Below, piece by piece: positions 3,429-56,750 of a DNA stretch of 64,000 bases (positions are counted from its first letter, which is position 1; each line of letters opens with the position of its first letter). A program made the translations under genes and the position numbers. The notes beneath the pieces were generated by a model. It was not told the DNA's origin and made no database searches. It saw only the letters and a program-made list of their open reading frames with translations. This DNA comes from Ginglymostoma cirratum (taxonomy: Eukaryota), in contig JAHRHZ010000223.1 in assembly GCA_024137785.1 (NCBI GenBank), forward strand, positions 15,409,652-15,473,651. The letters are read 5' to 3'.

Positions 3429-3681
3429 GGAACAAAAACAAAGTTGCTGGAAAAGCTCAGCAGGTCTTGCAGCGTCTGTGATGGAAAAAACAGAGTTAAC
3501 GTTTCGGGACCGGTGACACTTCCTCAGAACTTCTGAGGTTCTGAGGAAGGGTCACCGGACCCCAAACGTTAACTCTTGTTTTCTCCTTCACAGATGTTGC
3601 CAGACCTGCTGAGCTTTTCCAGCAACTTTGCTTTTGTTCCTGATTTACAGCATCCGCAGTTCATTTGGTTTTTACTTGTGT
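3429..3681. mobile_element. Palindromic Penelope-derived insertion with two opposed hammerhead motifs
   Basis: Arms ~3429-3530 and ~3538-3645 are reverse complements. 10-bp direct repeat AATAAAATTT at 3419-3428 and 3682-3691. Confidence 0.8.
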
Positions 3682-4959
3682 AATAAAATTTTGTTGAAAT
3701 GAAACAAATTTGGAAGACAAAAACAAAAATTGCCGGAGAAACTTGGCAGATCTGGCAGCATTTGTGGAGAGAATGCTAAGCTAATGTTGTGGGTCCAGTG
3801 ATCCATTTCAGAGACAGAATTTGGGGGATATTGGTGACATACTCCTGATGTTTATAGTCTAAAAATTTCAGTGATGACTCAACTGTATGTATGCTGTACA
3901 AATCTAAGCTGCAATTGACAAAATCAGTCCTAACATTAGAAAGACATATAAAACTGTGATGACATGCAGAGAAGTAAAAAGCAGAAACCAAATGCCAGAT
4001 AAAAGCAGATAAATAGAACTAAAAGATGAAGGAAATATATTTTGAGAAGATAATTGAAATTAAAATGATAGGATAAAAAAATCAAGGAGACCTAAGGACA
4101 GATTTCCAGATGGAAGGTGTATGGTTGATGAAGGAGTCAATGATTAAATATAAAAGGCAGTGAACAAACAGTAAAGCGTCCAATTTGAGATATAGGACTG
4201 AAAAGAAGTCACTGAAATAGGCTGGTGCAGGGATATGGATGATATTTGATGTTGATATGGAAGAGTGCAAATTATTGGTGACCATTGCAAAGATTTAGCA
4301 TGATGCAATGCATAAAAAAGTGGGCAAAGGAATAGTTTGCAATTTATGGAGAACACAAGTGAGAAGTTTAGCTAGGACAAGTCAAATCTGGAGGTGACAC
4401 AGGAATAGATTAGAATATCAGCAGAGTGGACCAAACTGGATGGACATTTCAAAGATGAAAGAGCAATAAATAGAGGTTATTTTATCATAACAGATAACTT
4501 TAAAACCTGTCAGGTTTATTATTTTATCTCTTGTAATAAAGTTTGCCAATGTAATAGAAAGGTATAAAGCCTCGAAGAGAATAAAACAAAAACTACTGAT
4601 GCTAGAATAAGATCAATATGAACTGAATATTTCTCAGCTATTCAAACAAACGACTAATTCAACTTCTCATGACATATCTTGCTATTAGTTATAGCAAATG
4701 ACTATTAAAATTAAATGAGAACTTTTGCTGTTGAAGTGGGACTGAATCTAATGCATGCTAACAAAGTCACCTGGTTTGGGAATTGCAACATACTCCTGAT
4801 TTCATCTGCATTCGTGAGAATATATTTGCATGCAAGGCAAAGTTCCAGTTTAAATTGTGAAGTCCGGGAAAACCTCCACGTAGATGTACAGTTATTTGAT
4901 TTTGTACAAGTTTCCTCGAAATGGATTTTAGAATTAATTATGATAACACATTTGGATGA

Positions 4960-5490
4960 GACCATAAGACCAAAAGAGGTAGGAACAGAAGTAAGCTATT
5001 TGGCCCATTGTGTTGCTGCACCATTAAATGAGATCATAGCTATCTGATCGTCCTCAACCCCACTTTCCTGTCTTTTTCCCATAACCCTTGATTCCTTTAC
5101 TGATTAAAAACCTGATAAAGAATTCTGTAGATTCTCTACACCCTTAGAGAAGAAGTTCCTCCTCATCACTGTCTTAAATATCTGACCCCTTTTCTGAGAT
5201 CTTGCTCTCTGGTGTTATACATTCTTTCAAGGGGAAACAACCTTTCCACATCTACCTTGTCAAATCCCCCAAGTTTATTGTATATTGCAATAAAGTCACC
5301 TCTCATCCTTCTAAATTCCAACAAGTACTGGCCAACCTATTTAGCCTCTCCTCATCAGACAGTACTGCCGTATCTGGTATCATCCAGACAGCTTTCTCTG
5401 GACGGCCTCAAAATCGGTGTATCTTTCCTTAGATAAGGGACCAAAACTGGTGACACTATTCCAGCTTTCTGACCATTGCTTTGTATAACC
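4960..5490 (-). mobile_element. CR1 LINE 3' fragment
   Basis: Reverse complement of the CR1 3' end (GACCATAAGACC tail, CCCCATAACCCTTGATTCC, TTCCTCCTCATC); homologous to 6500-7040 and 40335-41750. Confidence 0.85.
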
Positions 5491-5736
5491 TGCAGGGTGT
5501 GCATCCCATATTGTGAAAATTAACATCTATAAATTAGTCTAAAATGGGCTGAGAAAAGAACATCAATGTGCACCAATAGTATAACCAACCCTAACTAGAG
5601 AGTTAAATATTGGCATACACTTACTCTATTTAAGTGTAAGCCTGTCTGACATATATAGGCTACTAATATTGCAGAGCTTTCTCTTGGAGACATTTTCCCA
5701 GAAAAAACTTCCATCCTTGATAATGTTGATACTTAC

Positions 5737-5897
5737 CTGAGATTGTATTCCTGTTTCTATGTTAGTCAGACTGAGTTTCTGTTTTACTCAGAGCTGATAC
5801 CTTCTTTAATGGCTGATCAAGTTCTGCGCAGGCTGGAGGCAAAGGGTTGAAACTTGCTATGATGAAGGGATTGGGATGTTATGGTCTACTTATATGG
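5737..5897 (-). promoter_or_regulatory. Candidate TATA promoter plus non-coding first exon of a gene running leftward
   Basis: Minus strand: CCATATAAGT (5897-5888), pyrimidine-rich Inr-like TTCATC ~31 nt downstream (~5863), an ATG-free ~127-nt segment, then a perfect donor CAG|GTAAGT at 5737/5736. Confidence 0.5.
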
Positions 5898-6023
5898 CAC
5901 ACTGCTGTGACATTTAACATCTTTGAAAGCACAAAGAAGTATTATTATGTTGGCTCACAGTACCTCTAACCGGTAACATGGAGCTGTCATATGATATGTG
6001 CTGCCAAAGTGTACCTTGAGTAA

Positions 6024-6217
6024 GAGAGATAAAAGGTACTGCAGATGCTGGAGAATCCGAGATAACAAGCATGGGGCTGGATGAACACAGCAGGTCAAGC
6101 AGCATCATAGGAGCAGGAAAACTTGACTTCTGATGAAGGGTTTAGGCCCGAAACATCAAGTTTTCCTGCTCCTATGATGCTGCTTGACCTGCTGTGTTCA
6201 TCCAGCCCCATGCTTGT
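6024..6217. mobile_element. Palindromic Penelope-derived insertion
   Basis: Near-perfect ~60-bp inverted arms (6064-6126 and 6156-6217). Direct repeat TGTACCTTGAGTAA at 6010-6023 and 6215-6228. Confidence 0.85.
6125..6162 (+). ncRNA. Minimal type I hammerhead ribozyme motif (Penelope-associated)
   Basis: GACTT-CTGATGA-A-GGGT(TTAG)GCCC-GAAAC-ATC-AAGTT: core boxes CUGANGA and GAAA, stem II, stem I GACTT/AAGTT and an NUH triplet. Confidence 0.7.
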
Positions 6218-6499
6218 ACCTTGAGTAAAGCAGTTTTCGAAGACCAGGATGAGAACTATGCCCATCACATATCTGTCCCCTCCCTTCGTATTACAGTTTG
6301 GTCAGAGGAGTTGAAATGACCAATTGAAGAATTGGTATGTCATGTGGGCTGCTAATATTTATGCTGTGTATTGTAATTTAGACAATGTTCATTCATTTTA
6401 TGGTCTTAAGTTTAACAGCATTAGTTTCTTTACCAGACAACATTTGGAAATTATACAGTTTATTTGTTCCCATATTGTAAGACCTAATAAATTATTGTG

Positions 6500-7040
6500 T
6501 GCAGCTTTAGGCCCCATATCTCAGGAAGGATGTATTGGCCCTGGAGCAGGTTCAGAGGAGGTTCACAAGAATGGTCCCAGGAATGGAAAGCTTAACATAT
6601 GAGGAACGTTTGAGAACTCTGGGACTATACTCATTGAAGTTTAAAAGGACGAAGGGGGATATAATTGAAACTTTCAGAATACCGAATAGCCTGGACAGAT
6701 TGGATTTTGGGAAGATGCTTTCATTGGTAGGAGACACTTGGACCAACGGGCACAGACTTAGAGTAAAGGGAAGACCTTTTAGAATGGAGATAAGGAGAAA
6801 CTTCTTCAGCCAGAGAGTGGTGAATCTATGGAATTCACTGCCACAGAAGACTATGGAGGCCAGCTCATTGAGTACATTTAAGACTGAGATAGATAGGTTC
6901 TTGATTACCAAAAGGGTCAAGGGTTACTGGGAGAAAGCAGGAGAATGGGGTTGGGGAACTTATTAGCCATGATTGAATGGCAGAGCAGACTCGATGGGCC
7001 AAAAGGCCTAATTTCTGTTCCCACGTCTTATGGTCTTATG
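6500..7040 (+). mobile_element. CR1 LINE 3' end (ORF2 C-terminus still open, 6535-6966)
   Basis: ALEQVQRRFTRMVPGMESLTYEERLRTLGLYSL...RRNFFSQRVVNLWNSLP is the typical CR1 ORF2 C-terminus; tail CTTATGGTCTTATGG. Confidence 0.95.
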
Positions 7041-9594
7041 GCCTTATAGTCTAAATTAGAATCACAATTTTGTTGCAATTTGCAATTTTGTTGCAAATCC
7101 AGACACTTTGATCATTAAAAACCTTTTCAGAAAACTTGTTGACTTGAAACCTTAACTTTATTTCTGTCCCCACAGATACTGCTTGACCTATTGAATGTTC
7201 CCAGCACATTCTGCTTTTATTTATCGATTTTGTGACTTTCTGCTTTTTTTATACAATAAAATATTTACATGTGGAACTTGTCACTGAAATCAATCTGCAT
7301 CTCTGTTTTATTCATCAATTGAGATTTTAAGAGTTTGGGATTTTCTAACAGCCACATGAATTTTAAATTAGGAGACATGCTGACAGTTGAGTCCATTGCG
7401 CACAATTTGAGGTGGTAAATCAGAAAAATTCTGGCAAGGGAAGAGATCACATCCAGTTCAGTAATGGTATCTATTTTCCTTACTGCCTGTTGGAGAATGG
7501 GGTAAAGAAGAGCCAAGGGCATTCACATGCTTGAAACTATATAGATCCATTGGACCAGGAAAATCACGCTGAGCATTTTCACTGTCAGTAAACTACAAAA
7601 TAAAATTTGTTGAATGACAAGGAATGACAGACGGTATTTTTTGTTTTGTATGATATTGTAACGGAGCATACAAGAAAATATATTGAAGAGGGATTAACAT
7701 TCAAGAAAATTAACTATAACTTTTATAATGCTCCTCATATAAGTACTGCACAGTGCAAAGTTGAAATTTAGTTTTCTTGAGACTTATGAACTTTTGAAAT
7801 GGTTAGTTACTTTAATGAGCTTCAGAATCCATAGACCTCGCAATACTTTCCAAATCCCAGTGCAGTCAACTACTGATAGGGAAGGATTATCTCTCTGAAT
7901 GCTATGTCAAATGTACTGCAATGTAGAGCTTTGTTTCAAATTCCCAGAATGCATTACTATGCTAGGTTCATGACATACAGTCAAATCTAAAAAGCAAACA
8001 GCTTTTAGTATTCCAAGCAGTGTTAAGTGATTGATTAATTGGTGTTGAGCTCTCTGAGTGTGGCTTAGCTTGTTGCAAATTTCTTAGATTAGACAAGAGA
8101 GTCCCTGTGCATTGACCGAGCGTAGTTTCTTGATGAAACCAGATGTATCCGCTCAAAAAAAACTTTACAGCATTTTGAATTAACAACTATTTTTTGGCAA
8201 ATTTATAGCCAAGACAGTTTTACTGTCAAAGTACTAGGTTATCTTAATTCTTGCGAAAGTAATTAACTTTCCAATAAAAGGATGTGTGTGTCTTTCAATC
8301 TATTTTTAATCTGTGACAAAATGTCAACATTAACAGGGCTATTGTCTTAGTATAGGATCTAAATATTCATATGTTGCTGATGATAAGTTGTAAGTACGAT
8401 TTTATGTTATTTTGAGGTAATGCAATTCTGAAAATAAGAGTTTTTAAGAATCTCATGAGCATCAATGAAATAATTGTAGGTGAATGTTAGGTTCACTTCT
8501 TCTGCAAATCCAATTGTTCACTAATAGATTAATTTGTTGAGCATTTGAAGAAATTTACCGGTAAATATTTGAAATCCCCAATTTAACTTCAGGAAACCAT
8601 GTCAGCCGATGCATGCTTTTCTTGCCAAACACCAGTGTCTCTTAAGTTAGATGAGAAATGCCAGGATCTCTCAGTGAAGCTACTTGTGGTTTGTCTCAAG
8701 CTGACAAACAAACATTCAGAAAATACCATAGCACAAATTTAGGAGTGGCCTGCTTCAGCAAAGACACAATATATATTTAAAATTGACTCACACATTGCCT
8801 TCCAGATTTAAATATGTGCAAATATACTACTTAAATTTTCAGTTTTCAGTTTAGAACAGAGAAAATCTGAAAAGGAATTCTCACAGACCAATCCTGACAA
8901 TTCTAATACTTTTTTTGTTACAAAATGACAAAGTATATAATAATTTGAATTAAGCAAGTATAGAAAACAAAGTACAGTGAGAATTTGATGCCAACATAAA
9001 TCATGTGACTGAAGGAAGCAACTTTACATTAAGAAGAGAAGGCTGGATTATTTTATGATCACACACTGATCTTTTATAAAAAATGTGCTCATTTTATTTA
9101 TTATTTGGAAGATCTGCATAAAACATAGAAGTAGAAATTCATTGTTCACTTTTATTAAACTCAGTACACAGTTCCCCTGAATACAGGAAGGAGGAAACAC
9201 CATAAAGGACATTGAAATGGTGAATTTAGTGACTTTTAATCATTCACAATCTCCTCTTTAATATAATTCAAAGATTTTTAATTTTCTTTGATGAGTATTT
9301 GTAGTACCCATTCATCACATAAGCCATCCTAATTATATAGTTTGACTCAAGCAACATTTGAGATGATACTTAGAAATTAAGAATATAAACATAGGAATAT
9401 GAGCACAGAGTAAACAGTAAGAATCAGCATTTTGGTGGGAAAAATGATCACACATATCTTTAATTTTGTGTTTGAGGTTTTCTTAGGATTAGTATCAGCT
9501 CTTCTCCATGCTTAGTTTGGTGCTTTCTCCTTACAAAACAACATTGACTGAAAAAAAAGCAAGCTCAAAGTTCCATCATCATTACTTCTTTCCT

Positions 9595-11800: not shown

Positions 11801-11869
11801 TTTTGCTTCCAGCAGAGTCTTTGCCCCTAATGAGATATTATTATTTGTTAACTCCCAAACAAAATAAAG

Positions 11870-12065
11870 GGGAGGCAATGATCTAGTAATATTATCACTA
11901 GATTATTAATCCAGGGGACTAGGTAAGGTTCTGGGACCTGGGTTAAAATCATTTGTTTATATATCATAAGCAATGTTCACGCCGGATGGTAGAATTTGAA
12001 TTCAATGAAAATCTTGAATTAAGAATCTAATGGTGACCATGAAACAATTGTTGACTGTTGGAAAT
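11870..12065 (+). mobile_element. tRNA-derived SINE, 5' half
   Basis: GGAGGCAATGATCTAGTAATATTATCACTAGATTATTAATCCAG...GAATTTGAATTCAAT, same family as 37165-37460. Confidence 0.75.
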
Positions 12066-12079
12066 GTCAATGGTTAATA

Positions 12080-12450
12080 AAGGCAAAATACTGCAGCTGC
12101 TGGAAATTAGAAACAAACTCAGCTGGAGAAACTCAGCAGACCTGACAGCAGCTGTGGAGGGAGAAACAGAGTTAATGTTTCAAGTCTGGTAAGGCTCTTC
12201 TTCAGAATTCAGAATGAGGCACTGTTCCTCCAGCTTGTGTTGGGTGTTGCTGAGACACTGCAGCAGACCTGGGACAGAAACAATAACATGGGCATGAGGG
12301 CAAGAGACTGTATTGAATGGCAAGCAACTGGAAGTTCCAGGCTTCTAGGCTATTCTTGCAGGCAGAGCAGAAAATTCCACAAAATGGTTCACCACTCTGC
12401 ATTTGGTTTTGTCAATGTAGAAGAAACTGCATTGAGACAATGCTGAGTGA
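12080..12450 (-). mobile_element. Penelope-like element 3' fragment with GIY-YIG endonuclease remnant and hammerhead motif
   Basis: Minus-strand SQCSFFYIDKTKCRVVNHFVEF and ELPVACH resemble the Penelope GIY-YIG pattern (CSxCGLLYIGETKRRLxxRFxEH...PVAxHF). CTGAAGA...GAAAC-ATT-AAC at 12169-12208. Confidence 0.75.
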
Positions 12451-14689
12451 TAGTCTTAAATACAGAGGTCACATAAGGAGGAAGATGGGCTGACTTTCAA
12501 CGTCTGTACAGATGAAAGATGTTGAGAATTACCGATGACAGTCAGGTAAATAGGTTGTGAATTTATCCAGAACTCCTGGATTCAAGTCCCATCTGCTCCA
12601 GAAATGGGTCTGAACAGGCTGATTAAAATATCTATAAGTTGTGAATTCACCAGTACTGGTTCACTGTTGTGGTGGAGCAGAACCCAACTTGGACAGCTTC
12701 AAACATAGAGTTGCAGAACAAATTGATTTCATTCGAAAAGGAAAGGAATATCACAGGTGAAGCTATAGGATGCAAGGAAAAAGGAATTCAAAGTGAATTT
12801 TATGAGAACGGAAATGAAGCCTTTGATTTTGAATGGGAGTTGAAAGAACCATTTACATTCAAACATTGAACCTGGAAGAGAAAGTTAGCTGGTAACAATT
12901 TTATTGGGAATTCATTGGAGTCAATACTGCTGGTGGGTCTCCTGGACTTGGTAAGGGGTGTGAAATTAATGAAAGCATAGGGGTCTGTCTGTGTCAAAGG
13001 CAGATTTGAAAGTAGTTTGACATGTTGAGTAACAAAAGGTTGCTGGACACGAAACATGAACTCCGTTCTGACTTCACAGATGCTGGCAGATCTGCTGAGT
13101 TTCTCCAGTGATTTATGTTTTTGTTTGCTTAAGGATGGTTAAACAACAACTATTGTGAGAGAATGTATTGTAGATATGAGGGAACATCAGGCATATCCTG
13201 TGGGCAATGTGGCTTTGTGGCTATTGTGCTATTACACTGCAGGTGAAGGGTAATGTCAGATTGCCAACACTTGCCTGGGTGCCGAGCAACCTTTTTGAAA
13301 ATATGGGAGCTGAGGATGCTGGTGTTTCAGGTTTATCTGGTAAGTGGCGAGTTCTTCCAAGAAGGCTGGGTGGTAGAATGGGGCTAGAATCAGACAAGAG
13401 GGGCACCATAGGAGCATGGTAGTTAGTAAATGACACACGTTTGGTGAGTTGCAGCAGGAAAACTTACTAGGCTTCGTAGAGATAAATCCTCTGTGATATT
13501 CAATGTAAGTGATACAGTCTAAAATTTAAGATTCAGCCATGTGTCACTTGTGCTGTGATAATCTTATTGACCAATGATATAGAAATTACTTATATTATTC
13601 TAGCTGTGATGACTAGATGTCACAATATGAACATTTCAGACCCAATTGATAATGACAGTATAACTATAAATCTGAAAATTACTGCTGTTGTTCAAAGGAT
13701 GAAACAAGCTATATTTTTCTGTCAATATTTTAACACTGATGTTAACCAATATATTTTAAATGGATTATTGTCTTCCCAATAAAAGAAGACAAACAAATCC
13801 CTTGAAATTTGTCTATTGGTATAGCAAGAGGTAATTTCTTGTCTATAATGTCTATTCATGCACTTCTTTTCTTGATTTGAAGACACTTTTGTAAAACTAT
13901 TACAACACCAAGTAAAAAGGGACTAAACAGCACAATATAGGATTCCTCTCTCTATATTTTTTACTTCAAAAGGCAACCAAATAACCATGAGTGAGACTGA
14001 AATGTGAAGAAAGGCTGAGGTGAGGAAAATGAGATGAATAGAAACTGAATTAGGAAATAAAGACCAGCGCAGACTCTTTGTGCTGAATAGGCCATTTCTT
14101 ACTGAGCAGTCTATGGCATTCAATGCAATAAACAAAGCAGAAATGATGCAACATCTTGCAGACAATCATTTTATTGGTATCAGTTCGGATAATTCAAGAA
14201 AAATTTAAGTGCTGACTAAAAATAAATTGCAGTTTAAATTAAACATATCTCGCGCATAAATAGAGAGACCTTGGGCGCTGGATTTGGCATTTGTATTTTA
14301 AATGTGTTTTGAACACCTCGGTATTTTTTTAAAAAAGTCAGTGAATCCCGCTCAGGCATCTATCATTGCAAAATCAGTTCAGTTCACATCTGTGTAATTC
14401 AGCTAATTTCCACAAATATACACACATTTCTCTAGAATGCCCAGTCTGATGTAGATTGTTGAGAAAGTAGTTGTATCATTCGACTGCCATTGAATAGAAT
14501 AACTTGCAGATTACAGATACTAGTCTGACACCCATATATGTATTGTATATACAGGTTGCCTACTTTAAATGGTCAAATTTGGCATCCAAGTAACATAAGT
14601 TTTCACATTGTACCTCTCAGAATGCATAACATAACTGTCATATAACTGAATAAAATTTAAAAGTTGGAACTAGACCTTTTTAGATTGAA

Positions 14690-14959: not shown

Positions 14960-15290
14960 TTTTTAATTCATTCACGGGATATGGCTATCGCTGGCCAGGC
15001 TAGCATTTTATTACCCATTCCTCATGCCCAGACGGCAGTTAACCATATTGCTGTGGGTCTAGAGTCACCTGTGGGCCAGACCAGGTAAGAAACCAATTTC
15101 CTTCCCAAAAATGGCAAATGCATTTTTCCTGGTAATTGTTTGATAATCATCATTAGACATTTAATCCCAGATATTTATTGAATTCATATTCCACTGTTTA
15201 CCATTGTGGGATTTGAAACTAGGTCTCAGAACATTATCAAGGTCTCTGGATTAATAGTCAAGCAATAATACCATAAGACCAATACCTACC
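14960..15290 (-). mobile_element. tRNA-derived SINE, near full length
   Basis: TTTTAATTCATTCACGGGAT tail through GGGATTTGAA...TCTCTGGATTAATAGTC head. Confidence 0.8.
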
Positions 15291-19550: not shown

Positions 19551-22129
19551 GATACTGGAGAAGTACACTGGCGCCCAGAACAGCAGAGTTCTAAGAAGCA
19601 GACAGCCTCTCCCAGCTAATTTCCTTCAGTTTGGCTAAATGGTTTGTCCAGTATCGCTGCACCTCTCTCTTTTAATTGCGCTAGAAGTCGTTAAGGAATA
19701 AAACACTCTTGTGTTCATATTTCGCGGACGAGATTGAAACAGATGCTTGTCTAAGTTGTTACTTGAGGTTATTATTTGACAAACTCTACATTTACTGTTA
19801 CGTCTCGGTTAAAATTCTGGTTAATCGTTCGACTTTGTTCTTTCCTCGTTCTTTCAAATGAATAAAGGTTAGCGACTATTCGGTGATAAAATGTTAATTT
19901 AGCATCGTTATTCTTTATGCCATTAGGTGACAAGGCACCTACATATTTGAACAAGACACACATACTGCAAACACATTGCAAGCAGATCTAAAAGAGACAT
20001 ATCAAAACAACGTGATAGAAGATTATTAATTACACGAGTTCACACAAGGGACAATGCACTATTGTGTTGTCGATTACAGACTTTTACATTTAATTTTACA
20101 GGTATCCATCATGCACATTACATTAAGGTCCTAGTTTCTGAGCAGCATTCAGAACATCTACAACTTTTCTTCGCCACTCAGCAGTCAGAGTTTATGAGAC
20201 TCGTATATTTTAGACAAAGCGGGATGAGGTGGAAAATGGTCCATAAATTCTGACGTTGATTTACGCAGGAGTCCATTTGCAGACCATCCCAAGGAGTCCT
20301 TGCTCAGTCCTGATCTGCACCAGCTGGAACCTGCCATGCCAGGGAAACGCTGAGCAGAGTTCACTAACTGCAGACAGAGCTAAAGTAAACAGAGGTGGTC
20401 ATTCACATTCAAGTTAGCAGCCTTTGGACAGATGATCGGGACCGGAGACCACACACCCGGACCACACAAGGACCAGACCGTCCCACTTGCACGCCAACAA
20501 ACGCGGATTTCTCCTCCTACTCTGGTACACTGTTCAGCGCGGTCCTAAAGACAGCTTGTCATAGAAATGTAGTCCGGCACTTGACATGAAAATCCGATCT
20601 TTACATGACGAATTCACAGAATAACACACTTACTATAATCGTAGATACCACGATAAAGCTAATAAGAAGTTTAATTTAGCAGTGCCTTTCAATTTGAATA
20701 TAAGAAACGAAAGTCAGGCACATACTATCGTATTTCATTTTCTGCTCGCTTACATTTTGGTTGATTTGCTTCTGTGTGCTTTTTAGCCTGTTGTATTCCC
20801 CAGATTGTAAATCGAACAAACTACAGAGAAGCGAGTGGTGTGTGGCTTGAAATGGGTAAAAAGGCCATCGAGATGCGATTGAACATCTCAGTCTGTCCGT
20901 CATTAAGGCGACATTTTATTCCTGTCTATTAACGTTTACGTGGAAAGTGCACTTTAAATTGTGACAGGCATGTATTTCATCTTTTAACGTTGGTATTGAG
21001 ATTTTCCTTTATAGAGTGTTTCCCAAGCTCGCCAAAACAAAGCTTTTTGTTTCCTTTTTACACCTTCAACATAAACACATGATAAATTCAGTTTTCATAT
21101 GTCCACCAGCAGCATTCTCAGTGAGACATAAAAGTATATTTCATTACATGTCTCCCAGTTAACTGGAGAGCACTTTATTCAACAACACGGTTAAAATGTT
21201 CAGGATTTTCTAGTTGTAATTTTGGGGTGCTCGCATTGATGGGAACGTCAACGAGACAATGTCAGAATGAACGAGAACGCAAGCGAAAAGTCAAATTCTC
21301 AGTTATGTCAACCTGCCAACATTTTCAAGCTGAGTTTATTGGATTGTCCAGACCTACGCATATACTTAATGTTTGCAAACACATATCATGGTATAATGTT
21401 TCATAAATGGCTGAATTAATTTTCACGCACAGAGTTACGACATGGAATGTATCATTTCTACAATATCAGCTATTTCTGAGTAGATTTCAATCATTTAGAG
21501 AGAAAATCTGAATTACTTTACTAAACAAATGTATTTATTAGCTGAGCTGTGTATTACATATTTGCAGTTGTCATCTACTGGTCGCCAATACATACCACTC
21601 AAAAAAAAAGCTGCAGTAAAATTATTTGTATGTGCGTTTACTAGTTGTTTCGTATTCTGCCGGTAAATTAAAGTCAGGCCACTTTCCAACAGTTTCAACT
21701 TCACGAGTTCAAAGTGGCTGTTTACAATGAGAGGGCAAGTATCAGGCAAAGATAACACTTTTCACAATGTGACAAATGTTGTGTTAACACCTAAAGCTGT
21801 GCATAGATGGGGCCGAAAGATCCACTAAAACCCTATGATTTTGCTTCTAAACAAGTCACATTTTCTTAAGTGGCACGATTAGTATGTACATTTAAATATG
21901 AAACAGCTTGTGACTTGCTGATTCTAAAATGAGTGATACAGAATCAGTTGGCATATTTGGCACATTTTAAAAATCTTACTTTCAAATACATGGCATGGCC
22001 TAATTATGTCATTTAAAAACTTTATTATCACAATGTGATCCAATTAGTGAGATGTGTTAAACATATATGAATGTATAAAATGAAAGGCGCGACGGTTCTA
22101 TCTATGATCAAGATAGGAGTAATGTTCAA

Positions 22130-22240
22130 AATAGAAACAAAAACAGAAAATGCTGGAAAAACACAGCAGGTCTGACAGCATCTGTGAAGAGAAAGCAGAG
22201 TTAACGTTTCGAGTCAGGTGACCTTTTTCAGGACGTTAAC
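22130..22240 (-). mobile_element. Penelope-derived short insertion
   Basis: AACAGAAAATGCTGGAAAAACACAGCAGGTCTGACAGCATCTGTG...GTTAACGTTTCGAGTC. Confidence 0.75.
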
Positions 22241-22693
22241 ATTAAATAAATTGTTTTACTTCCATGATCAAATGCCAGTGTTTATATGTATGAAATTGTT
22301 TTCTGAACAAAGCCCTTACATTTAGAGAGAGGGAGAACATTGTAAGCGGTAAGCCAAAAGCACAGAGGCATCTTTTCATAACACAGTCACTGTCTTATCT
22401 CTGACTCCAGCATCGGCAGCTCTTATTACCTTTGAGGTAACTTTTCATCATGTCTTGTAATTAACTGAGAATTTTACAAATGAAGTGATTTCTGATAAAT
22501 GCAATTCGGCGGTCAGATTTTGGTCAAAAAGAAGAATTTGACCGAGATGTTACTTTTTCATGGGTTGGTTGAGTGCGTCTGGGGTATATATCCCTGCTGG
22601 GATACATGAAAGTCATGCTCTTTCAGAGCAACGAACCTCTGGGCCGAGCAGAGAACTTGCTGGGAGAGCATTTCAAATCGTACTATTGTTTGT

Positions 22694-22828
22694 GAGAGAG
22701 ATAGTAGGAACTGCAGATGCTGGAGAATCTGAGATAACAAGGTGTAGAGCTGGATGAAAACAGCAAGCCAAGCAGCATCAGAGGAACAAGAAGGCTGACG
22801 TTTCAGGCCTAGATACATCTTCAGAAAA
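22694..22828 (-). mobile_element. Penelope-derived short insertion with hammerhead core
   Basis: GAGATAGTAGGAACTGCAGATGCTGGAGAATC... Minus strand CTGAAGA...GAAAC-GTC. 7-bp direct repeat TGTTTGT at 22687-93 and 22829-35. Confidence 0.8.
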
Positions 22829-23764
22829 TGTTTGTATCCAGGCTGTATTGCTCCCAAGAAGTCAGAAGTGGTCAGGCAGCCCTGCGGACATAGAACTCAT
22901 TGCAGGCCAATTTGGAAGTTAGCGATACACGTGGAGTATGGCCTAGCCCTTTGAATCAGGGTAAACCAAATAAAATTGCGAGGTTACCTTAGAATTTCTA
23001 TGACCTGAAATATTCTTATGTGTTTTTCAAACTGTACTTCAGTTTCTAGGACAAAATGAGAGCAGAGCTCTCATCCTGAATTTTGCTTCAATCTTTTCTG
23101 TTAATCTATTTCTAATTCTTAACCTCTTTTGATTTAATAATCCGCAGATTTGAAATTTGCTAGGCAATCTATACTCGCAACGTTTTGTAGTAGTTTGAGC
23201 AGTTTTTTTCTGATTATGGCAAGCGTTAGTTATGGGAAATATTAATTATGTTTCGACACGTCATAAGAACAGCGTCGGAGACAATGCTCTAGCAGCGTCT
23301 GGTGTGAGAGAATCAGAGAACGCTCCGAGTCCGAATTAACTTTTCTTCAGAACTGTTTTTATTTCAGATCTCCAACATCCGCGGTATTTTAGATTTTTTT
23401 TTAATATACACGTGTTCGTCCGCGACAGACTTCAAATAGATGACAATCATCAACAGTTTTAATTCTGGATTCTGAATCACATGAGATTCCGAATTAATCA
23501 TTTACTAGTCATTTACAGTATTTGTTCAACATGACAACAAGAAACATTTTCATTGCAATAACTAAGAGTGCTAGAATGTTTAATTAACAAGATATGTCGA
23601 TTTAAAGGCTTATTAAAATATGCATGTTTTAAATTTGATATCTGCGTTTTCCAGTGATGCACTTGGAGCTTCAACAATATCAGTTTTGTAGGCCGCTTCG
23701 TTGCAAAATTATTTCCTTCTGAGTGGATGAGTACCACAAAATATCTGATTAGAGTTTCGCGTGT

Positions 23765-24210
23765 AGAGTGGATTGGAGAGGAAGACCGCCCCTTCGCTTC
23801 TTGAAGAAACTGTCTCCCAAATAACGCACAATGTACCAGGAAGAGTGGCACTCCCCCCAACAAACCCACCCCCACCCCTTTCTCTCCCTCCCCTCCCCCA
23901 CCCAAATCTGCAGAGCCCTGTCCTGGCCGGTACACCTCACTCCCTGAATAGCGATTGGAGTTTCCTTTTTCAGCTAGGCTTGAAGCCGAAAAGAATGACC
24001 CCGGCAGCTTTCCAGGGGAATCTGTTTATTCGTCAGAGACATTTGTGGATATAAGTTGCGTGACTTTTGCAGATCACAAGATTTGCTCTGCCTGTGACCC
24101 TCTGCGTCATCTCATTTAAACAACACCACTTCACCTTATCTCCAACCCCACCCCCAAACTCCAGTCCGCCTTTAAAAAAAAGTCAGTTAGCAAACCCAGC
24201 CTTGTGAGTT
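23765..24210. promoter_or_regulatory. Promoter-like motif cluster
   Basis: Two reverse CCAAT boxes (23771, 23953), GC box CCGCCC (23786), C-run tract 23851-23905, TGCGTCA, CTTATCT (GATA), CCCCACCCC, and a donor-like GTGAGT at 24204. Confidence 0.5.
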
Positions 24211-30569: not shown

Positions 30570-30760
30570 AAGGCTGAGCCCTTCAGGTTAATGGAAGCTG
30601 TTCTAGACTGATGTTTAATTTTTAATCAACAAGAGAATCAAGTATTTATGAATAAAAACTAGGAAAGTGGAGTTGAAGTTGATCAGATCAGCCATAATTT
30701 TATCGAATGGCGGTGTAAACTTGATGGCCGGAATGGTCTATTTCTTCTCCTATGAGTTAT
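30570..30760 (+). mobile_element. CR1 3' fragment
   Basis: GATCAGCCATAATTTTATCGAATGGCGG...GGCCGGAATGGTCTATTTCTTCTCCTATG. Confidence 0.7.
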
Positions 30761-31974: not shown

Positions 31975-32390
31975 CGTTTATGGGTGTGAGTATTGCTAAC
32001 AAGGCCAGCAGTTGTTGTCCTTCCCCAATTTCCGATGAGATCATTGGTGCGTCACCCTCCTCGAACTGCTACAGTCAGTGTGTTGTGAATGCACCCACAG
32101 TGTTACTTTTCTGTAGCAGCTCTATGCATTTGAACGGCAACTTGAGAGGGCAGTCAAGCATGTTAACTATCGGCCTTGGAATTGCATGTAGACCAGACTG
32201 TGGAAGGCATGGCAGCTTTCTTTCCCTGAAGGAGCAGAGGGGTGTTTACAATAGTCAATAGTTTCATGGTCATCATTACTGATACTAGCTTTTTAAAAAA
32301 AATTTCAACTCTATTAACTCGATTCAAATTCCACAAGCTGGTGGAATTTATCCTCTTGTCTCTGGAACATAAGTCTGGGGCTTTGGATAA
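31975..32390 (-). mobile_element. Degenerate SINE/LINE-tail fragment after a short (TA)n tract
   Basis: ATGGGTGTGAGTATTGCT...GGCAGCTTTCTTTCCCTGAAGG...TTTCATGGTCATCATTACTGATACTAGC. Confidence 0.6.
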
Positions 32391-36129: not shown

Positions 36130-37140
36130 AGGGACTTGGGTGTATGAGTATATAATCATTGAAGGTGGCATGACAGGTAGAGGGAACTGGAAATAAAGCA
36201 AACAGTATTCCAGGCTTAGGAGATAACAAGCATGGGGCTGGATGAACACAGCAGGTCAAGTAGCATCATAGGAGCAGGAAAACTTGACGTTTTGGGCCTA
36301 GACCCTTCGTCAGAAATGGGGGAGGGGAAGAGGGTTCTGAAATAAATAGGGAGAGAGGGGGAGGTGGATAGAGGATGGATAGAGGAGAGGATAGGTGGAG
36401 AGGAGGCAGACAAGTCGAAGAGGCGGGGATGGAGCCAGTAAAGGTGAGTGTAGGTAGGGGGCTAGGGAGGAGATAGGTCAGTCCAGGGAGGACGGACAGG
36501 TCAAGGGGGCGGGATGATGTTAGTAGATAGGAGATGGGGGTGTGGCTTGAGGTGGGAGGAGGGGCTTCATATCTAAGAGTATATGGCACAAGAGCAGGGC
36601 CGATATGATGAACTTACATAGGACACTGGTTGGACCTCACTTGGAATATTGTGTACAGTTCTGGGTGTCACACTTAAGAGTAACATCAGTGGGTTGGAAA
36701 GAGGGCAGAAAGTTCCAATTATCAGGAAAAATTGGAGCGTTGGTACAATTTTCCTTGGAAATGAAAAGGCTGTGAGATTCGATTCAAGTTTCAACAGCAT
36801 GAGAGTTGAGACAGAGCAGTCAGGTGGCAACTGTTCCCACTCACAACCAGATTAGAAACCAAGAGCATAATTTTAATGTGCTTTACAAAAGCAGCACCTA
36901 TAAACTGAGGGTAAAAAAAAACTTTTTCACACAGTGAATAGTTAGGAAACAGAATGCACGGTCTAGAAGTGTGATGGAAGTTGAGGGATTCAAGAATGCA
37001 TTGTATGATTATGTAAAGAAACAATGTGCAGGATTATGTGGAAAGGGCAGGAGATTCACACCAAGTTAAAATACACAGACAGACAGTGCAGACACAATGG
37101 GTCAAATCATCTCCTTCTGCACGAGAACAATTCAGTGATT
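36130..37140 (+). mobile_element. CR1 3' fragment interrupted by a Penelope insertion
   Basis: GAGGGACTTGGGTGTA..., ACTGGTTGGACCTCACTTGGAATATTGTGTACAGTTCTGG, TTTTTCACACAG, 3' UTR ACACAATGGGTCAAAT. Confidence 0.75.
36218..36565 (-). mobile_element. Penelope-like element 3' end (pyrimidine-rich UTR plus terminal repeat)
   Basis: Same terminal sequence as 6060-6125, followed by a GA-rich tract. Hammerhead motif at 36281-36317 with GAAA mutated to AAAA. Confidence 0.8.
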
Positions 37141-37164
37141 TTGTAATTGCAAAATTATTTTGGG

Positions 37165-37460
37165 GAGTTGATAGCTTCGTGGTATTATCACTGGCCTATT
37201 AATCCAGAAACCCAGGTAATGTTCTGGATTGAAATCCTCCCACGACAGATGGTGGCATTTGAGTTCAATAAGTATCTGGAATTAAGAGTCTAATGATGAC
37301 CATGAGTCTATTGTTGCTTGTTGAAAAACCCATCTGGTTCACTTGAGGGAAGAAAACTGCCATCCTTACCTATAAGTCCAGACCAGCAGCAATATGGTTC
37401 ACTCTTATCTGTCCCTGGGCAATAAATGCTGGCCTCGCTAATGACACATTCATCAAATGA
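37165..37460 (+). mobile_element. tRNA-derived SINE, near full length
   Basis: GTGGTATTATCACTGG..TTAATCCAGA, AAAAACCCATCTGGTTCACT, GGGCAATAAATGCTGGCC. Confidence 0.85.
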
Positions 37461-40334: not shown

Positions 40335-41750
40335 TGACCGTAAGGCCATAAGACGTAGGTGCAGAAATAGGCCGTTTGGCCCATTGAATCTGTTCCACCT
40401 CATCTAATGATACTCAATTCCTCTTTTCTGCTTTTTCCCTATAACCCTTGATTCTTTTACGGATCAAAAATCTATCTATCTCAGCCTTGAATATACGTAA
40501 CGACTGAGCCTCTACAGCCCTGCGTGGAAAAATAATCAGCAGATTCACTACGATCGAAGAAACAAAATTCCTCCTTCTCTCTATCCTATCTCTATCTCTA
40601 TCCTAACTACCCTGAACCTTACATTATAGTATCCCTACTTTGCAGATAGAGGTCATTTGGCCCTTTGAGTCAGCACCAATCCTCCAAAGTCCATCCCAGC
40701 CTATCCCTGTAACCGCGCATTCACCAAAGTTAGCCAACCTAGCCTGCAAACTACAGAGTATTTAGCATAGCCAATCCACCTAACTTTTACTTCTTTGTGA
40801 CTGTGGAAGGTAACCTGGAGGAAACCCATACAAGACATGGGGAGAACATGCAAACTCCACAGAGAATCACCTAAGGCTTGAATCAAACCCAAGTGCCTCA
40901 TGCTGTGAGGCAGCAATTTTGAGAACAGTGCCATCATCTCACCCCATGTACCAGAGTTCTGTAGTCTCCCACGACTCTGTCAAGCCCCCTAAGAAACTTA
41001 CATGTTTCAAAATGTCCCACCCTCATTCTTTTAAATTTCAATGAGAACGGGCTCAAACTACTCAACCTTTTTTCATAGAACAATCCTTCCATGCCCAGGA
41101 TCAATGTGGTGAACCTTCTCTAGATTGCCTCCAATGATGTATATTTTTCTTTAGATAAGGAGACCAAAATTGTTCACAGCATTTAGTGATCTATTATCTG
41201 CGCTTGTATGCTAACTTCTTGTGATTCACGCACAGGGATCCTCAAATCCCTTTGTGTTACAGCTTTCTGGAGTTTTTTTTCCATTTAAGTAATATTCAGC
41301 ACCTCTATTGTTGCTTCCAAAGTCCATAACCTCACATTTTCTCACATTATATTCAATTTGCCAAGTCTTTGGCTACTCACTTAACCTGTTTATGGCTCTT
41401 CCAATTCATTTTGTGTCATTCACTAACTTGGTGATTGTGCATGACTTTTGTTAGTTAGCAAATCCCATGTCCAATACTAATATACTATCCCCAACACCAT
41501 TGGCTCTTGATTAAAGACTTTATTGTGTTACCTTTCTGAATGCCTTTTGGAAATCCAAATCTACGGGTTCTCCTTTATCTATCCTATTTGTTACCTCGTC
41601 AAAGATTTCTAACAGATTGGTGAGGCATGATTTTCCCTTCAAGAAGACATGCTAACTCTGATTGTTTACATTGTTTACTTCTAAATGCCCTGTTATTGCA
41701 TTCTTTATAATAGACTCTAATATCTTCTTAATGACAGATGTCAGGACTGA
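40335..41750 (-). mobile_element. CR1 LINE 3' ~1 kb, interrupted by an HE1 SINE
   Basis: Tail GACCGTAAGGCCATAAGAC; GTGAACCTTCTCTAGATTGCCTCC; GCCTTTTGGAAATCCAAAT (reverse of the RT LDFQKAF motif). Confidence 0.85.
40625..40945 (-). mobile_element. HE1-type V-SINE
   Basis: Minus strand TGCTGCCTCACAGC...TGTGGAGTTTGCATGTTCTCCCCATGTC..GGGTTTCCTCC...GTTAGGTGGATTGGCTATGCTAAA matches the V-SINE central domain. Confidence 0.85.
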
Positions 41751-47225: not shown

Positions 47226-47329
47226 TACAGAGAATTTTTCCAACAGTCTCCAGGTGCACAATATGAGCAGCATGTTACCAGCTAAAGAAGAGCTGGTGGG
47301 AAACAATGAATGATAATAAAAATAGAAAT

Positions 47330-47765: not shown

Positions 47766-47769
47766 CAGA

Positions 47770-48235: not shown

Positions 48236-48269
48236 AAGTCAAGATTAAAAAAAAATTGAATTGCATCGG

Positions 48270-49519: not shown

Positions 49520-51350
49520 GAATCATAGAAAGTTGTATCACAGAACTTGGAGTCTTAGCCCATGCTATCAATGCCAACCAAGCAATGCAGCCTCATCCCA
49601 CTTTCCAGTTCTCAGTCCATTGCCCTGTATAGTGCAATTTTGCAAATGCACATTAAATACTTCTTCAATATGACAGAGTGGGTGAGACACAAAATCTCTT
49701 CAGGAAATGCATTAAGTCTCATAAACCTCTGGGTAAATAATTTCTCAACTCCCCTCTAATCTTCCTAACAATTACGTTGAATTACTTTTGTTCTCTGATA
49801 GTTGTCCTTTCTGCCAAGGGAAATAGATTTTGCCTCTTCTTTCTGTCTAGGCCTCATATAATTTTGTATACAGCCATCTGTCCAAAAGGAAACAACCAAA
49901 AAAGCATCCTAAAGGAAAAGACAGAGTTAACATTTTGGGTCTGGTGACCCTTCCTCAGAACGGTCAAGTTTTGAGGAAGGGTCACTGGACCTGAAACGTT
50001 AACTGTGTTGTTTCCTTCACAGATGCTGCCAGACCTGCTGAGCTTTTCCAGCAACTTTATTTTTGTTCCTGACTTAGAGCATCCACAGTTCTTTCGGTTT
50101 TTATTCAAAAAAGCATCCTATTTAGTCTATCCTTGCAGCTGAAATTTGCTAGTTCTAGCAACATGATCAACCTTATCCTCTCGAAAGCAATCATATCTTA
50201 CAGAGAATGCAGAGGCCAGATCTGCATGCAGTATTTTAGCTGTGTCTTATCTAAAGTTTTATACAGCAACATCGCCCACTCTTATATTCTATACCGTGAT
50301 AAATAAAGGAGAGTATCTTATATGCCTTCTTAACCACATTATCTACATGTCCTGCTATCTCTAGAGATTTTGGCTATGTACTCCAAAAGTCCCTCTACAC
50401 TACTACAGTTCACAGTAATCTATCATTTAATGTGCATTTGCTTACCTTGTTTGTCTTCTCAAATGCATTACCTCATACTTTTCTGGATTGAATTCCATTT
50501 TTTGCTCCTTTGTCATCTTGTCTATGAATGTATTTTTGCAGTATGCACCTTTTATTACTATCAATCACACAGCAAATTTGCAAATATTATTTGCAAACCC
50601 TTTAATCATATATCATGTGTATGTCTAAATGATGGATATATGCTTTGAACAGCTAGGGACCCAGAACAGAATTCTGTGAAGCCCACTGAAAACAGAAGTA
50701 AGAGTTACGAAATGCTGAATAGCCATTACCCTCTGCTTGCTGCCACTGAGTCAATTTTGGAACGACAATGCCACATTTCTTGGGTCCCTTTGACTTCTGC
50801 TTTTCTGATTAGACTGTCAATTGAGACCTTAGAAAAATCTTTGCTAAAATCCATGTAAAGCACTATCCTCATCAACTGTCCTTGTAACCTCTTCAAATAA
50901 TTTAATCAAACTATTCAGGCACAACTTTTCCTTGACAAATCTGGGCTGACAGTTCTTGATTAATTCCTACTTTTCTCAGTACCGATTAATAATGTCACGC
51001 AACAGTTTTTCCAACAATCTCCCTACAATCAAGATTTAGCTAGTTGGTCTGTAATTATGTCTTTCTTCCCTTCTAGACAATGGTGCAATATTCACAGCAT
51101 TTCAAGTGTCGTGCACCCTCCTCTGTAGCCTGAGGATTGGAAAATGATGCTCAAAGCCTCCATTGTTCCTCTTACTTCTCTTTGTAGTCTGGGATCATTG
51201 ATTCATTGTGATTTATCTGCTTTCAAAGATTCCTAGCAATTTAATAGATCATCCCTTACTGATTTATCCCATCCAATGTTCTTCACCCTTCTTGACAACA
51301 ATGGCTGCATTGCCTTCTTTCTCTGTAAGTACAGGTGCAAGGTATTCATT
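49520..51350 (-). mobile_element. Old CR1 fragment (~1.6 kb)
   Basis: CTCTGGGTAAATAATTTCTC, CCTTCTTAACCAC.TTATCTAC.TGTCCTGC, CTTGCTAAAATCCATGTA (reverse of YMDFSK). Confidence 0.7.
49912..50105. mobile_element. Palindromic Penelope-derived insertion with 15-bp TSD
   Basis: CAAAAAAGCATCCTA at 49897-49911 and 50106-50120. Inverted arms carry opposed hammerhead motifs. Confidence 0.85.
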
Positions 51351-54179: not shown

Positions 54180-55129
54180 TGTTGTGACCAAAGGATCATA
54201 ACTCCAGATCATCTATGCACATCTCAACTTTTAATTCCAAAGGAGATTTAGAAGAAGGCTGCTACAACCAAACAAATGACTCCAGATGTAAATTCACTGA
54301 CTGTCTGACTGAGTCCTGTGTGGTATCATGGAATGTTACACCTGTACAGAATGAAGGAAACTTCAAATAGAAAGACTATAAAGGAAGAAATAACAAGAGT
54401 CTGACTACCTGTACCACTCTCAACAGAAGGTGATCTCCTGCAGGTATGTTTGTGTTTTATCTTCTAGGAATTTCCAATTAAGGGATTTAAATGTGAGATT
54501 CAAATCTTGTCTGTACACGTCTGTGTCCTGGTTTGTGGACTCATATGCCATGAAGGCCGTAGTTTGACAACAGCCATTAAACACTCCTGCACCTCAGGCC
54601 AAGAAAGGGAAAAATCCGTCAGCCAGCCACTGTTAAAAGGAACCAGGACAACAGAATATCAATCAGCTTGCAACATCAAGAATCTCAGAATTTACTGTTC
54701 AACTAAGACTGTTAACAGTACTGATGGCATACACTATAGCTGCAACTAACTATCTACTCCACACAGAAGACTCCGTATATCTCTTCTTAATTTCTTTCTT
54801 TCTCTGGACTTATTTCTTATTTCTAATCTATTTATTGTGTTTTTTTTCTCATATTTAGTAACTAATAAACTCACTTACTTGTTAACTCAAGAAAACCTAG
54901 CTAAATTGATTCCTTTTAAAGCATTAATTCATTTGCTCTGGGAGAAAAGTATCCACAAAGAGAAGGGATCCTATTTAAATTCAACATTTTGAGAACAATC
55001 AATGAGAGGGTGAATGAATAAAGAAGGGAAGCAAAGTCATTCCTTTGTGCCCAGGAGCTTGGAAGATTTGAAGTATCATTTCTGAAGCTGAATCAGCTGG
55101 GGGAACCTTACCATGGTCTAGTTGTAACA
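54180..55129 (+). mobile_element. Solo LTR (~950 bp)
   Basis: Starts TGTTGTGA, ends TTGTAACA. Flanks ATGC/ATGT (4-bp TSD, one mismatch). T-rich tract, then AATAAA ~54864. Confidence 0.6.
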
Positions 55130-56199
55130 ATGTTAACAGACTGCAGTTTGTCAGTATCATTCACCTTATGTGTTTCAAGGTTCTAAGTTATCTTCAAGTA
55201 TTGAAGATCATCCATTATGTTCCTCAAATTGTCCCACATCACACAGATTGAAGCTAATCATTGTGGAGAGTGCTCCATGACATTTACTTTGGTGCTGTGA
55301 ACTTGAAGGATAATAATTTATATTACAACTCCCAAATGGCAATTTTCCATAGCAGCTTTGCTGTCAGTTTAAAATAGTTATTACTGTTTGATCTCCTGAA
55401 ATGCTAGTCAAGGGCTGGTTGGTTCATTTCATTGGTATCAGCCTTAGCTACTCCATGTTGTGCCTCTAATTATAAGCTATGATTAAATGGAGAGAGGAGA
55501 TCAGTTACACCAACAGGCAAAATGGAAATATTTCAGGTGTATATTATGTTGATAAGTTGAAAATAGATGCTTGTGAAAGGAAAACTAGACAGTATAGGCA
55601 ATAGGACAGACTGAAAGGGAAAAACAGTGTAGATTTATAGGTAATCACAAAGTAAGTACTGCAGCTAGGAGTTGTGAACGTGTCATAAAATGATTGGATA
55701 ATATAATCACATGTATGAGCATGAAAATGATGGATAATATAGTATATTACTAATTTGGAATATGAACAATGCAAAAATGATTGGGTAGAGATAGGAGTGA
55801 GTAAAGTGTCACAGTTTGCTTGGAAATTACTATTTTTAGGCGTAGTTGTGGAAGGTTGTTATCTGTAAAATAGGTATATAATTTTTGCTCCAATGGAAAA
55901 AAATTTGAGCTGTATGCTATTTTTTAATGTGTACATTTCCCATGTATGCATGAAGAAATGTTTAAATAAAGGAACTCAAGTGTTATCTCGTCCAAGAGGA
56001 AATAAAGGGTTAAACTCACTGTCACACTTACCGCCAGTTACCAAAGTAACATTTAGAAGAACAGCGGAAGCAGACTATTTGTTTCCTTCTCAGGTACGAG
56101 CAGCAAGCAGAAGAAACTTTTAGAAACAAAACTTTTCAGCTCTTTTGGGAGATTGGCACAAAGGGACATAACCTGAAAATCAGTGCCCAACTAGTTACA

Positions 56200-56440
56200 A
56201 AAGTTCAGAAACACTGCTTCACAGAAAGTTTGGTGCAAGTTTGAAATTGTCTGTCATTTAAAAAAATCCATTAGCTGCCAGCTCAATGAGTAATTTTAAA
56301 TCAGACACTAATATATTTTTGTGAGCCAAGGGCATTAATGGAAATGGAGTCAAGGTGGATGGTTGAAATTATGGTACTGATCAGTCCTAAACCTCATTGA
56401 ATGGAGGAACAGGCAGGAAGGCTGAATAGCCTACACACAT
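56200..56440 (+). mobile_element. CR1 3' fragment, old
   Basis: TTCACAGAAAGT...AATTTTAAATCAGAC...CTCATTGAATGGAGGAACAGGC. Confidence 0.65.
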
Positions 56441-56544
56441 CTTAATATTACTAAGTCATAAAAAAAACTCAATAAGGAAAATGATGGGTTCATAAGGAAT
56501 AATGTTTCCTTTATGGTGAGCTTCCTGAAGATTTGACAAAATGT

Positions 56545-56750
56545 AAACTGAAAGAACTGTGGATGCTGTAAATCAGGAACAAAAACAGAAGTTGCTGGAA
56601 AAGCTCAGCAGGTCTGGCAGCATCTGTGAAGAAAATATTTTAGTTAACATTTCAGGTCTGGTGACCCTTCCTCAGAACACTGGGTCTGAGGAAGGGTCAC
56701 TGGACCCAAAACGTTAACTCTGATTTTTCCTTCATAAATGCTGCCAGACC
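56545..56750. mobile_element. Palindromic Penelope-derived insertion
   Basis: AAAGAACTGTGGATGCTGTAAATCAGGAACAAAAACAGAAGTTGCTGG... with an inverted arm 56683-56750. Confidence 0.8.

Follow-up and report, generated by a model that had tools for sequence, protein, structure and literature searches.

The window analysed here, a 64-kb stretch of the shark Ginglymostoma cirratum (contig JAHRHZ010000223.1, positions 15,409,652–15,473,651), contains eleven minimal hammerhead ribozyme motifs that fall into two dispersed families, A and B. Judged by sequence, the motifs are the ends of two Neptune-type Penelope-like elements (PLEs), the Neptune label being assigned by protein motifs rather than by a tree. 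The short copies, hereafter stubs, are in our reading mostly run-off DNA copies of the 5′ end of uncut element RNA, and we give this reading a probability of about 0.7. The link between hammerheads and Penelope has been in print since 2014; the present addition is two more families and a high count. If read in this way, more than 100,000 anchor matches form a fossil record of copies made from uncut RNA and starting at one site, which gives a direct handle on where PLE RNA starts and on what the ribozyme does.

The window has 37% GC and a single 400-N gap, and lies in a 4.36-Gb genome of 289 contigs. Each of the eleven motifs listed in the earlier note was found again at its position and on its strand. 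Profiles built from the window copies place both families far above chance (E values reaching 1e-37, with no matches in the reversed window) and also recover older or gap-broken copies beyond these eleven.

Parent elements

A Penelope origin, as proposed in the earlier note, is borne out by long copies of both families, which carry a reverse transcriptase (RT), a CX4CxxC linker and, C-terminally, a GIY-YIG domain. Pfam matches lie above the cut-off in all three long-copy proteins (RT PF00078, E value of 7e-8; GIY-YIG PF01541, E values of 4e-5 and 8e-5). In the translations of both families the CX4CxxC linker stands upstream of a CxxC-containing GIY-YIG core with CCHH-type motifs, and all of the coding copies read are interrupted by stops or frameshifts. 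A PDB sequence search with the RT returned no matches.

This domain order is that of the Neptune clade (Craig et al. 2021, PMC8557442), which has an RT, a CX2-5CxxC linker and, C-terminally, a GIY-YIG with CCHH; here and below, comparisons refer to the accessible parts of the cited papers. Also shared with Neptune are 5′ truncation, partial tandems, an inverted 5′ copy, a 30–40-bp tail and target duplications of variable length, and the flanks viewed, though not counted, gave no sign of microsatellite targeting. Nematis shares the linker, and the separation from it rests on vertebrate occurrence, not on a tree: Neptune was chosen because Neptune and Poseidon are the vertebrate clades and Poseidon has no linker.

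The window itself holds a trace of family B coding sequence. The GIY-YIG remnant that the earlier note had reported is real, and its placement is corrected to positions 12213–12488 on the minus strand. This broken remnant matches family B peptides (tblastn E value of 7.8e-11, 43% over 96 columns) and also has a nucleotide match over 12213–12337 (blastn E value of 6e-8); tblastn with family A peptides missed it. It is fused to an older family B element end (12095–12210, minus strand; G16.2 to A) from which the 3′ untranslated region (UTR) is missing, and on its far side a decayed inverted family B end (13023–13136, plus strand) is recovered by profile.

Positions within a copy are counted from the first T of TTCTGA, the letters with which the motif begins (position 0), which places the predicted cut before +30 in family A and before +32 in family B. 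A search with the 5′ part of the open reading frame (ORF) gave 41 matches from 40 of 1,992 candidates scored, leading to 29 other long family B loci. In 11 of these 29 bodies the ribozyme lies 609–622 nt upstream of the ORF anchor, with the tail and an ATG (about +172) after it. Flanks were readable in ten such bodies, of which six have an upstream pseudo-long terminal repeat (pLTR) and four begin at about −3 to +1. The complete layout of family B reads, from the 5′ side, TATA-like box (−31), initiator-like A (−2), hammerhead (0–38), two fixed copy-end points at about +100 and about +135, ATG (about +172), RT, CX4CxxC linker, GIY-YIG and 3′ UTR, after which the same repeat occurs again.

Copy ends and promoter-like signals

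Copy ends were determined in copies chosen solely by a downstream anchor, without regard to the ribozyme; 17 family A and 2 family B copies with N at the junction, and a further 36 and 24, respectively, that had been selected by ribozyme, were left out. The 5′ ends pile up at −5 to +1, where 66 of 125 family B copies and 26 of 75 family A copies begin. The remaining copies either extend further upstream (22/75 in A, 23/125 in B) or begin internally (27/75 in A, 36/125 in B). Compared with a uniform distribution over −5 to 48, the pile-up has p values of 1e-33 (B) and 2e-10 (A), computed over copies that include paired arms, which are not independent.

The 3′ ends form two classes about 35 nt apart, a short class and a class with the tail (55 and 61 copies in family B, with 9 others; 37 and 31 in family A, with 7 others). 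The stubs contain the cut site whole, start at the 5′ edge of the ribozyme and carry target duplications. Such duplications, of 8–19 bp, were found in 22 of 67 solo copies of family B and 15 of 42 of family A, versus 7 of 324 controls with mismatched flanks. An inverted partner adjoins the 5′ junction in 55 of 113 short copies of family B and 24 of 58 of family A (79/171 together). A literature search, made without subscription papers, supplements or Repbase/Dfam, returned no report of truncation at the 5′ edge of the ribozyme.

Upstream of this edge, long copies carry promoter-like signals. In family B this is TATAAA at −31, seen in 25 long copies, and in family A, across 69 long copies, TATTTAT at −33; both families have a pyrimidine-A-pyrimidine initiator-like site with its A at −2; the spacing of the TATA-like boxes is similar and their sequences differ. 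A TATA box together with an initiator-like site has been noted in a rotifer pLTR (PMC3846280).

Two further observations concern the insertions. Assembly gaps often separate the two arms of family A head-to-head inserts, 17 of 92 family A junctions containing N, and palindromic inserts are probably under-assembled. Copies of families A and B often lie within or directly beside each other, as seen at several of the fetched loci, which suggests targeting of existing pLTRs or template switching between the families.

Proposed origin of the stubs

The ends of the copies would be accounted for if Pol II began transcription at the opening base of stem I and if the element protein nicked host DNA and used internal sites downstream of the ribozyme, at about +100 or about +135, to prime reverse transcription. 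Priming on the 5′ copy of the repeat would yield a stub of 100–140 bp ending at the RNA 5′ end, priming on the 3′ copy would yield longer, 5′-truncated copies with GIY-YIG, and priming on both target strands would yield head-to-head pairs, that is, palindromes; the inserted copies would then decay through CpG deamination. Internal priming has been shown in vitro for an anole element (PMC11167929), for which tail ends, extension on both strands and the use of uncut RNA as substrate are also reported; the same work links the tail to two sites of internal priming.

With priming 3′ of the cut, cleavage would be predicted to hinder a round of copying, not to help it. The ribozyme is best regarded as a predicted slow motif of the master elements, dependent on a dimer or on protein, and not as a cutter of host RNA in this window. 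A stronger version, which we put forward tentatively and at somewhat less than even odds, is that the promoter of these elements drives transcription from the hammerhead's first base, that priming on the capped, uncut front of the RNA mass-produces stubs, and that the ribozyme acts as a brake on transposition. If true, this would explain the abundance of solo minimal hammerheads in animal genomes: cleavage would strip the cap at the front repeat and sever the ORF from the priming site at the rear repeat, making the ribozyme a brake, versus the processing step proposed in 2014.

Several points weigh against the run-off origin. The promoter-like signals are labelled by general TATA and initiator consensus sequences. 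The 5′ ends scatter over about 6 bases and do not fall on one. The end samples are first-listed exact matches on two contigs, a choice that favours young copies, and paired arms are dependent. The RNA start is deduced from DNA copies, and the contigs from public sequencing runs show neither starts nor ends. An untemplated G, as would derive from a cap, precedes 7 of 14 family B solo copies (p = 0.075) and 2 of 3 of family A, and is not significant. The sole mapped Penelope promoter, in Drosophila, is TATA-less (PMC2377424), and the in vitro model comes by analogy from a Poseidon element whose ORF starts inside the ribozyme, whereas the ATG here lies about 170 nt downstream.

Alternative explanations

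The sharp 5′ edge could instead mark a stop or template switch of the RT at a folded or protein-bound ribozyme, or resolution of the intermediate there by the endonuclease, with the pairs arising by self-priming. In both families the edge does match the 5′ end of stem I, inverted junctions occur in half of the short copies, self-priming has been proposed for such palindromes (PMC3846280) and the cap-G signal is weak. A structure should, however, stall the RT on its 3′ side, yet the copies traverse the entire ribozyme; the differing TATA-like boxes at similar spacing in the two families and the same edge opening 4 of 10 full-length bodies count against it as well, and we regard this explanation as unlikely. 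A splice acceptor at the edge, by analogy with the Drosophila Penelope intron that ends at helix I (PMC4209133), would suit the pyrimidine tract and CAG directly before the motif in family B. Family A, however, has no AG at the edge, the AG or CAG is still present in many family B stubs (35 of 59 solo copies have A at −2), and no common upstream exon joined to the stubs was found; of the explanations considered this is the least probable.

The very high copy number of the short units would also suit a non-autonomous family of retrozyme or SINE-like kind, multiplying by way of ribozyme cleavage and circular RNA, and non-LTR retrozymes, which derive from PLE pLTRs, have been found in one chondrichthyan (bioRxiv 10.64898/2026.07.22.740005). 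The window nevertheless has no tandem arrays of the motif, its four tandem repeats all being unrelated to it; the stubs equal the first 100–140 nt of the autonomous family B element, with the cut site whole and not running from cut to cut, and there is no distinct 5′ peak at the cut site, so that such a family is very improbable here. Slightly less probable still is that the host keeps the dispersed copies as functional ribozymes for cutting introns or long non-coding RNAs (lncRNAs). The at least 32,861 exact intact motifs genome-wide, the intact same-strand neighbours 4–8 kb apart in the motif listing (judged by eye) and the abundance of family sequence in run contigs guessed to be RNA would be compatible with it. 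Against it stand the window copies, none of the eleven being intact, and the decay of family B, in which G12 is altered at near the CpG rate and the core is kept in 30 of 84 copies; palindromic loci are moreover predicted to hide the motif, a double-hammerhead fold is predicted to be no stabler than the monomers, and poor cleavage, even of dimers, is published for minimal motifs (PMC4209133). The earlier note had inferred that some copies might still cut host transcripts, which is not supported for the window, where none of the listed copies combines an intact motif with freedom to fold.

Search for traces of cleavage, and RNA data

A footprint of cleavage was sought in copies that begin at the predicted cut. 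The local samples show no excess there, internal starts within 2 nt of it numbering 2 of 27 in family A and 4 of 36 in family B, which is the chance level. With exact-break patterns, one family A variant had 56 matches at the cut itself, compared with 23 at a distance of two bases on the 3′ side and 8 at the same distance on the 5′ side. On curation of 55, 22 and 8 of these, 11, 5 and 1, respectively, proved to be insertions or deletions (indels), and many others were inverted junctions with microhomology; A-rich targets confound the leftover excess at the cut site, which a hand estimate puts at about twofold. For family A, an unbiased break pattern over positions 27–38 (89 of 1,171 matches examined) gave 13 breaks at the cut and 15 at position 36. 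The 13 of 89 at the cut correspond to p = 0.03 for one of 12 bins, uncorrected, and solo copies taken separately (7/59) to p = 0.22. For family B (30 of 31 matches examined), position 29 leads with 11 breaks versus 7 at the cut. Any cleaved class would make up roughly 1% of copies or less by a hand estimate, inseparable from noise in these data.

Six otherwise intact family A copies have small indels exactly at the predicted cut site, where the search patterns themselves select for changes; if real, these could record rejoining of cut RNA.

Both families occur in thousands of pieces in the contigs of public runs, whose RNA status is guessed and which do not show starts or strand. Unique sequence has low, scattered cover in the same contigs, a level that cannot separate pre-mRNA from DNA.

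State and folding of the window ribozymes

The motif sequences quoted in the earlier note are family consensus sequences. The window copies themselves depart from them, and none of the eleven passes a strict minimal-hammerhead descriptor requiring both core boxes, a stem II of at least 4 bp, a stem I of at least 3 bp and a Watson–Crick 15.2–16.2 pair. G12, the general base of the hammerhead (PMC6155905), is lost in four (3538 plus, 36281 minus, 49923 minus and 56683 plus). Other changes are loss of G8 in one (22198 minus), C3U in one (49968 plus), G16.2A in two (6125 plus and 12169 minus) and a broken stem II in two (3493 minus and 22792 minus), while the copy at 56642 (minus) misses the descriptor solely by a U15.2–G16.2 wobble. 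Stem I of family A had been given as CTT/AAG and is in fact ATTT/AAG(T/C); the C is contributed by one copy alone, that at 6125, through its inverted junction.

The stems are largely kept as pairs in the families. Among 16 selected variants, stem II is 98% paired and stem I 77%. The covariation sought in the stems is slight, with changes on both sides in only one of eight pairs and a score equalled by 42 of 500 shuffles; covariation between A and B is weak, the families being too alike. Rfam hammerhead models gave no match in the window (E ≤ 5) or in any of four loci with intact copies (E ≤ 10). Such a miss is expected for hammerhead motifs without helix III.

Three head-to-head pairs hold six of the eleven motifs, and an inverted arm adjoins a seventh, at 6125. 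On either strand, the four palindromic loci have predicted hairpins of −89 to −170 kcal/mol that pair the ribozyme or its stems away. Given their opposite strands and these predicted hairpins, the head-to-head pairs differ from the tandem dimers in the published model, and a reading of them as double hammerheads is rejected. The nearest listed copies on the same strand are 22198 and 22792 (about 600 nt apart, one with G8A) and 3538 and 6125 (2.6 kb apart, one with G12C).

In cofolding, the double hammerhead is predicted to be no stabler than two monomers in either family (−17.3 versus −19.2 kcal/mol in B, −6.3 versus −18.6 kcal/mol in A), under energy models that leave out tertiary contacts and protein. 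The family A monomer, in one motif type, is predicted to form an inactive hairpin in which the 5′ core box pairs with helix III and cut-site bases, and this alternative fold could act as a lock. Both predictions, the absence of a gain from the double hammerhead and the inactive family A monomer, fit the low activity reported in the accessible text of PMC4209133.

Genome-wide number and decay

The earlier note's expectation of very many relics is supported by pattern counts, which gave 29,142 exact intact motifs of family A and 3,719 of family B, at least 32,861 in total. The exact downstream anchors number 90,622 (A) and 19,068 (B), and reversed-pattern controls gave 0 in all four genome counts. 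Applied to 416 kb of unselected flanking sequence, the strict descriptor has 16 matches, of which 15 come from families A and B, and none in shuffled sequence; a rough extrapolation, from two contigs, puts the genome total at about 1.6e5 strict motifs.

Copies of family B decay at the CpG rate even at the catalytic G12. Across 84 anchor-chosen copies, the four CpG positions are altered in 86 of 334 cells, and G12 in 16 of 83 copies, close to the other CpG sites (25–30%). Altered cells amount to 28 of 831 at non-CpG core positions and 71 of 735 at downstream non-core positions, the lower core value stemming in part from selection of copies that align at the 5′ side and from subfamily differences outside the core. 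The core is kept in 30 of the 84 copies. This pattern would fit neutral decay of copies derived from constrained masters. Family A, young, from a vertebrate and with as many as 29,142 motifs exactly intact, also offers a good test of whether such motifs are selected against inside genes.

Comparison with known systems

Minimal hammerheads (min-HHRs) were described in the pLTRs of metazoan PLEs by Cervera and De la Pena (2014, PMC4209133). The minimal type I architecture proposed in the earlier note is present in the family-majority form here, with both core boxes, helices I and II and a palindromic 15.2–16.2. Shared with the min-HHRs are the type I layout, both core boxes, an extra base between A9 and G10.1, the G10.1–C11.1 pair, the palindromic 15.2–16.2, a helix I of 4 bp and the absence of helix III, as well as an occurrence in thousands of mostly solo copies with pairs on opposite strands. 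Helix II has 4–5 bp here, unlike the 7–8 bp of the Schistosoma min-HHR, and the at least 32,861 exact motifs exceed the counts of coelacanth and Xenopus (about 4,000–9,000). No shark is named in the accessible text of that paper, the supplementary alignments of which may list one, and the literature search described above returned no report on shark PLE hammerheads.

The anole Poseidon element PAc (Frangieh et al. 2024, PMC11167929) likewise has two internal copy-end points past the hammerhead and copies made from uncut RNA. Its ORF starts inside stem II, whereas the ATG of family B, at about +172, comes after the ribozyme and after both end points, and stubs starting at the 5′ edge of the ribozyme are not described for PAc in the accessible text. 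Non-LTR retrozymes (Li et al. 2026, bioRxiv 10.64898/2026.07.22.740005) are similarly PLE-derived, non-coding, dispersed monomers that bear a hammerhead. Retrozymes, however, are direct tandem units each with a ribozyme, whereas the copies here are solo or inverted and match the 5′ end of the autonomous element.

Copies and other features in the window

Three of ten tested insertions in the window have clear target duplications, and a fourth has one of 7 bp. The leftmost insertion is a family A head-to-head pair at 1485–2038 (1485–1556 minus, 1959–2038 plus), missing from the earlier note, whose ribozyme part falls inside the assembly gap at 1557–1956. The next pair, of family B, consists of a minus-strand stub at 3423–3532, with core letters retained and stem II broken, and a plus-strand stub with a tail of about 35 nt at 3536–3674, in which G12 is changed to C; the insertion of the latter is marked by a 12-bp target duplication with one mismatch (3417–3428 and 3680–3691). 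Adjacent to it lies an older family B copy with a decayed ribozyme (3700–3815, minus; profile E value of 8.6e-17), also not listed before. At 6020–6217, a family A inverted arm with tail (6020–6126, minus), 5′-truncated within the ribozyme, abuts a family A stub (6128–6217, plus; G16.2 to A), and a perfect 14-bp duplication (6010–6023 and 6215–6228) surrounds the whole palindromic insert. An old family-B-like copy at 7124–7241 (plus; profile E value of 9.5e-10) is likewise new.

Solo stubs occur at 22120–22236 (family B, minus; G8 to A, stem II broken) and, with tail, at 22692–22829 (family A, minus; core letters retained, stems I and II broken). Old family-B-like fragments lie at 23265–23355 (minus; profile E value of 2.2e-5) and 31591–31681 (minus; 1e-7). 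A young family A 3′ end, comprising 3′ UTR and pLTR, occupies 36220–36560 (minus) and is 96% identical to a long copy elsewhere; its ribozyme has G12 changed to A, its TATA-like box is at 36348–36342 and its initiator-like A at 36317. Of the two remaining family B pairs, one has a minus arm at 49903–49963 (G12A and C15.2U) and a plus arm with tail at 49966–50103 (C3U), with a perfect 15-bp target duplication (49897–49911 and 50106–50120). The other has a minus arm with tail at 56545–56680, which is the most intact copy of the window, its only deviation being the wobble, and whose ribozyme is hidden in the predicted hairpin with its partner, and a plus arm at 56681–56752 (G12A).

A host gene scan of 30 of the 138 window ORFs yielded two sub-threshold Pfam matches and identified a gene in none. 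The plus-strand stretch 6511–6963, stop-free over 151 amino acids and with no Pfam match, resembles what we take to be the C-terminal end of a CR1/L2-type LINE ORF2; related pieces, with short tandem 3′ tails, lie at 4956–5455, 30619–30710 and 40336–41178. Minus-strand stop-free stretches at 59209–59718 and 903–1223, with no significant Pfam match, give the impression of other mobile-element protein fragments. A GC-rich segment with G-runs amid AT-rich DNA (23700–24000) has only a sub-threshold Rfam match. An old inverted repeat (2114–2458 and 2709–3089, 65% identical over about 350 bp) may represent the termini of a DNA transposon or LTR element that has decayed, and a dispersed repeat family of about 200 bp is present at 11869–12064, 15134–15290, 32204–32278 and 37162–37367, with 71–80% identity between copies.

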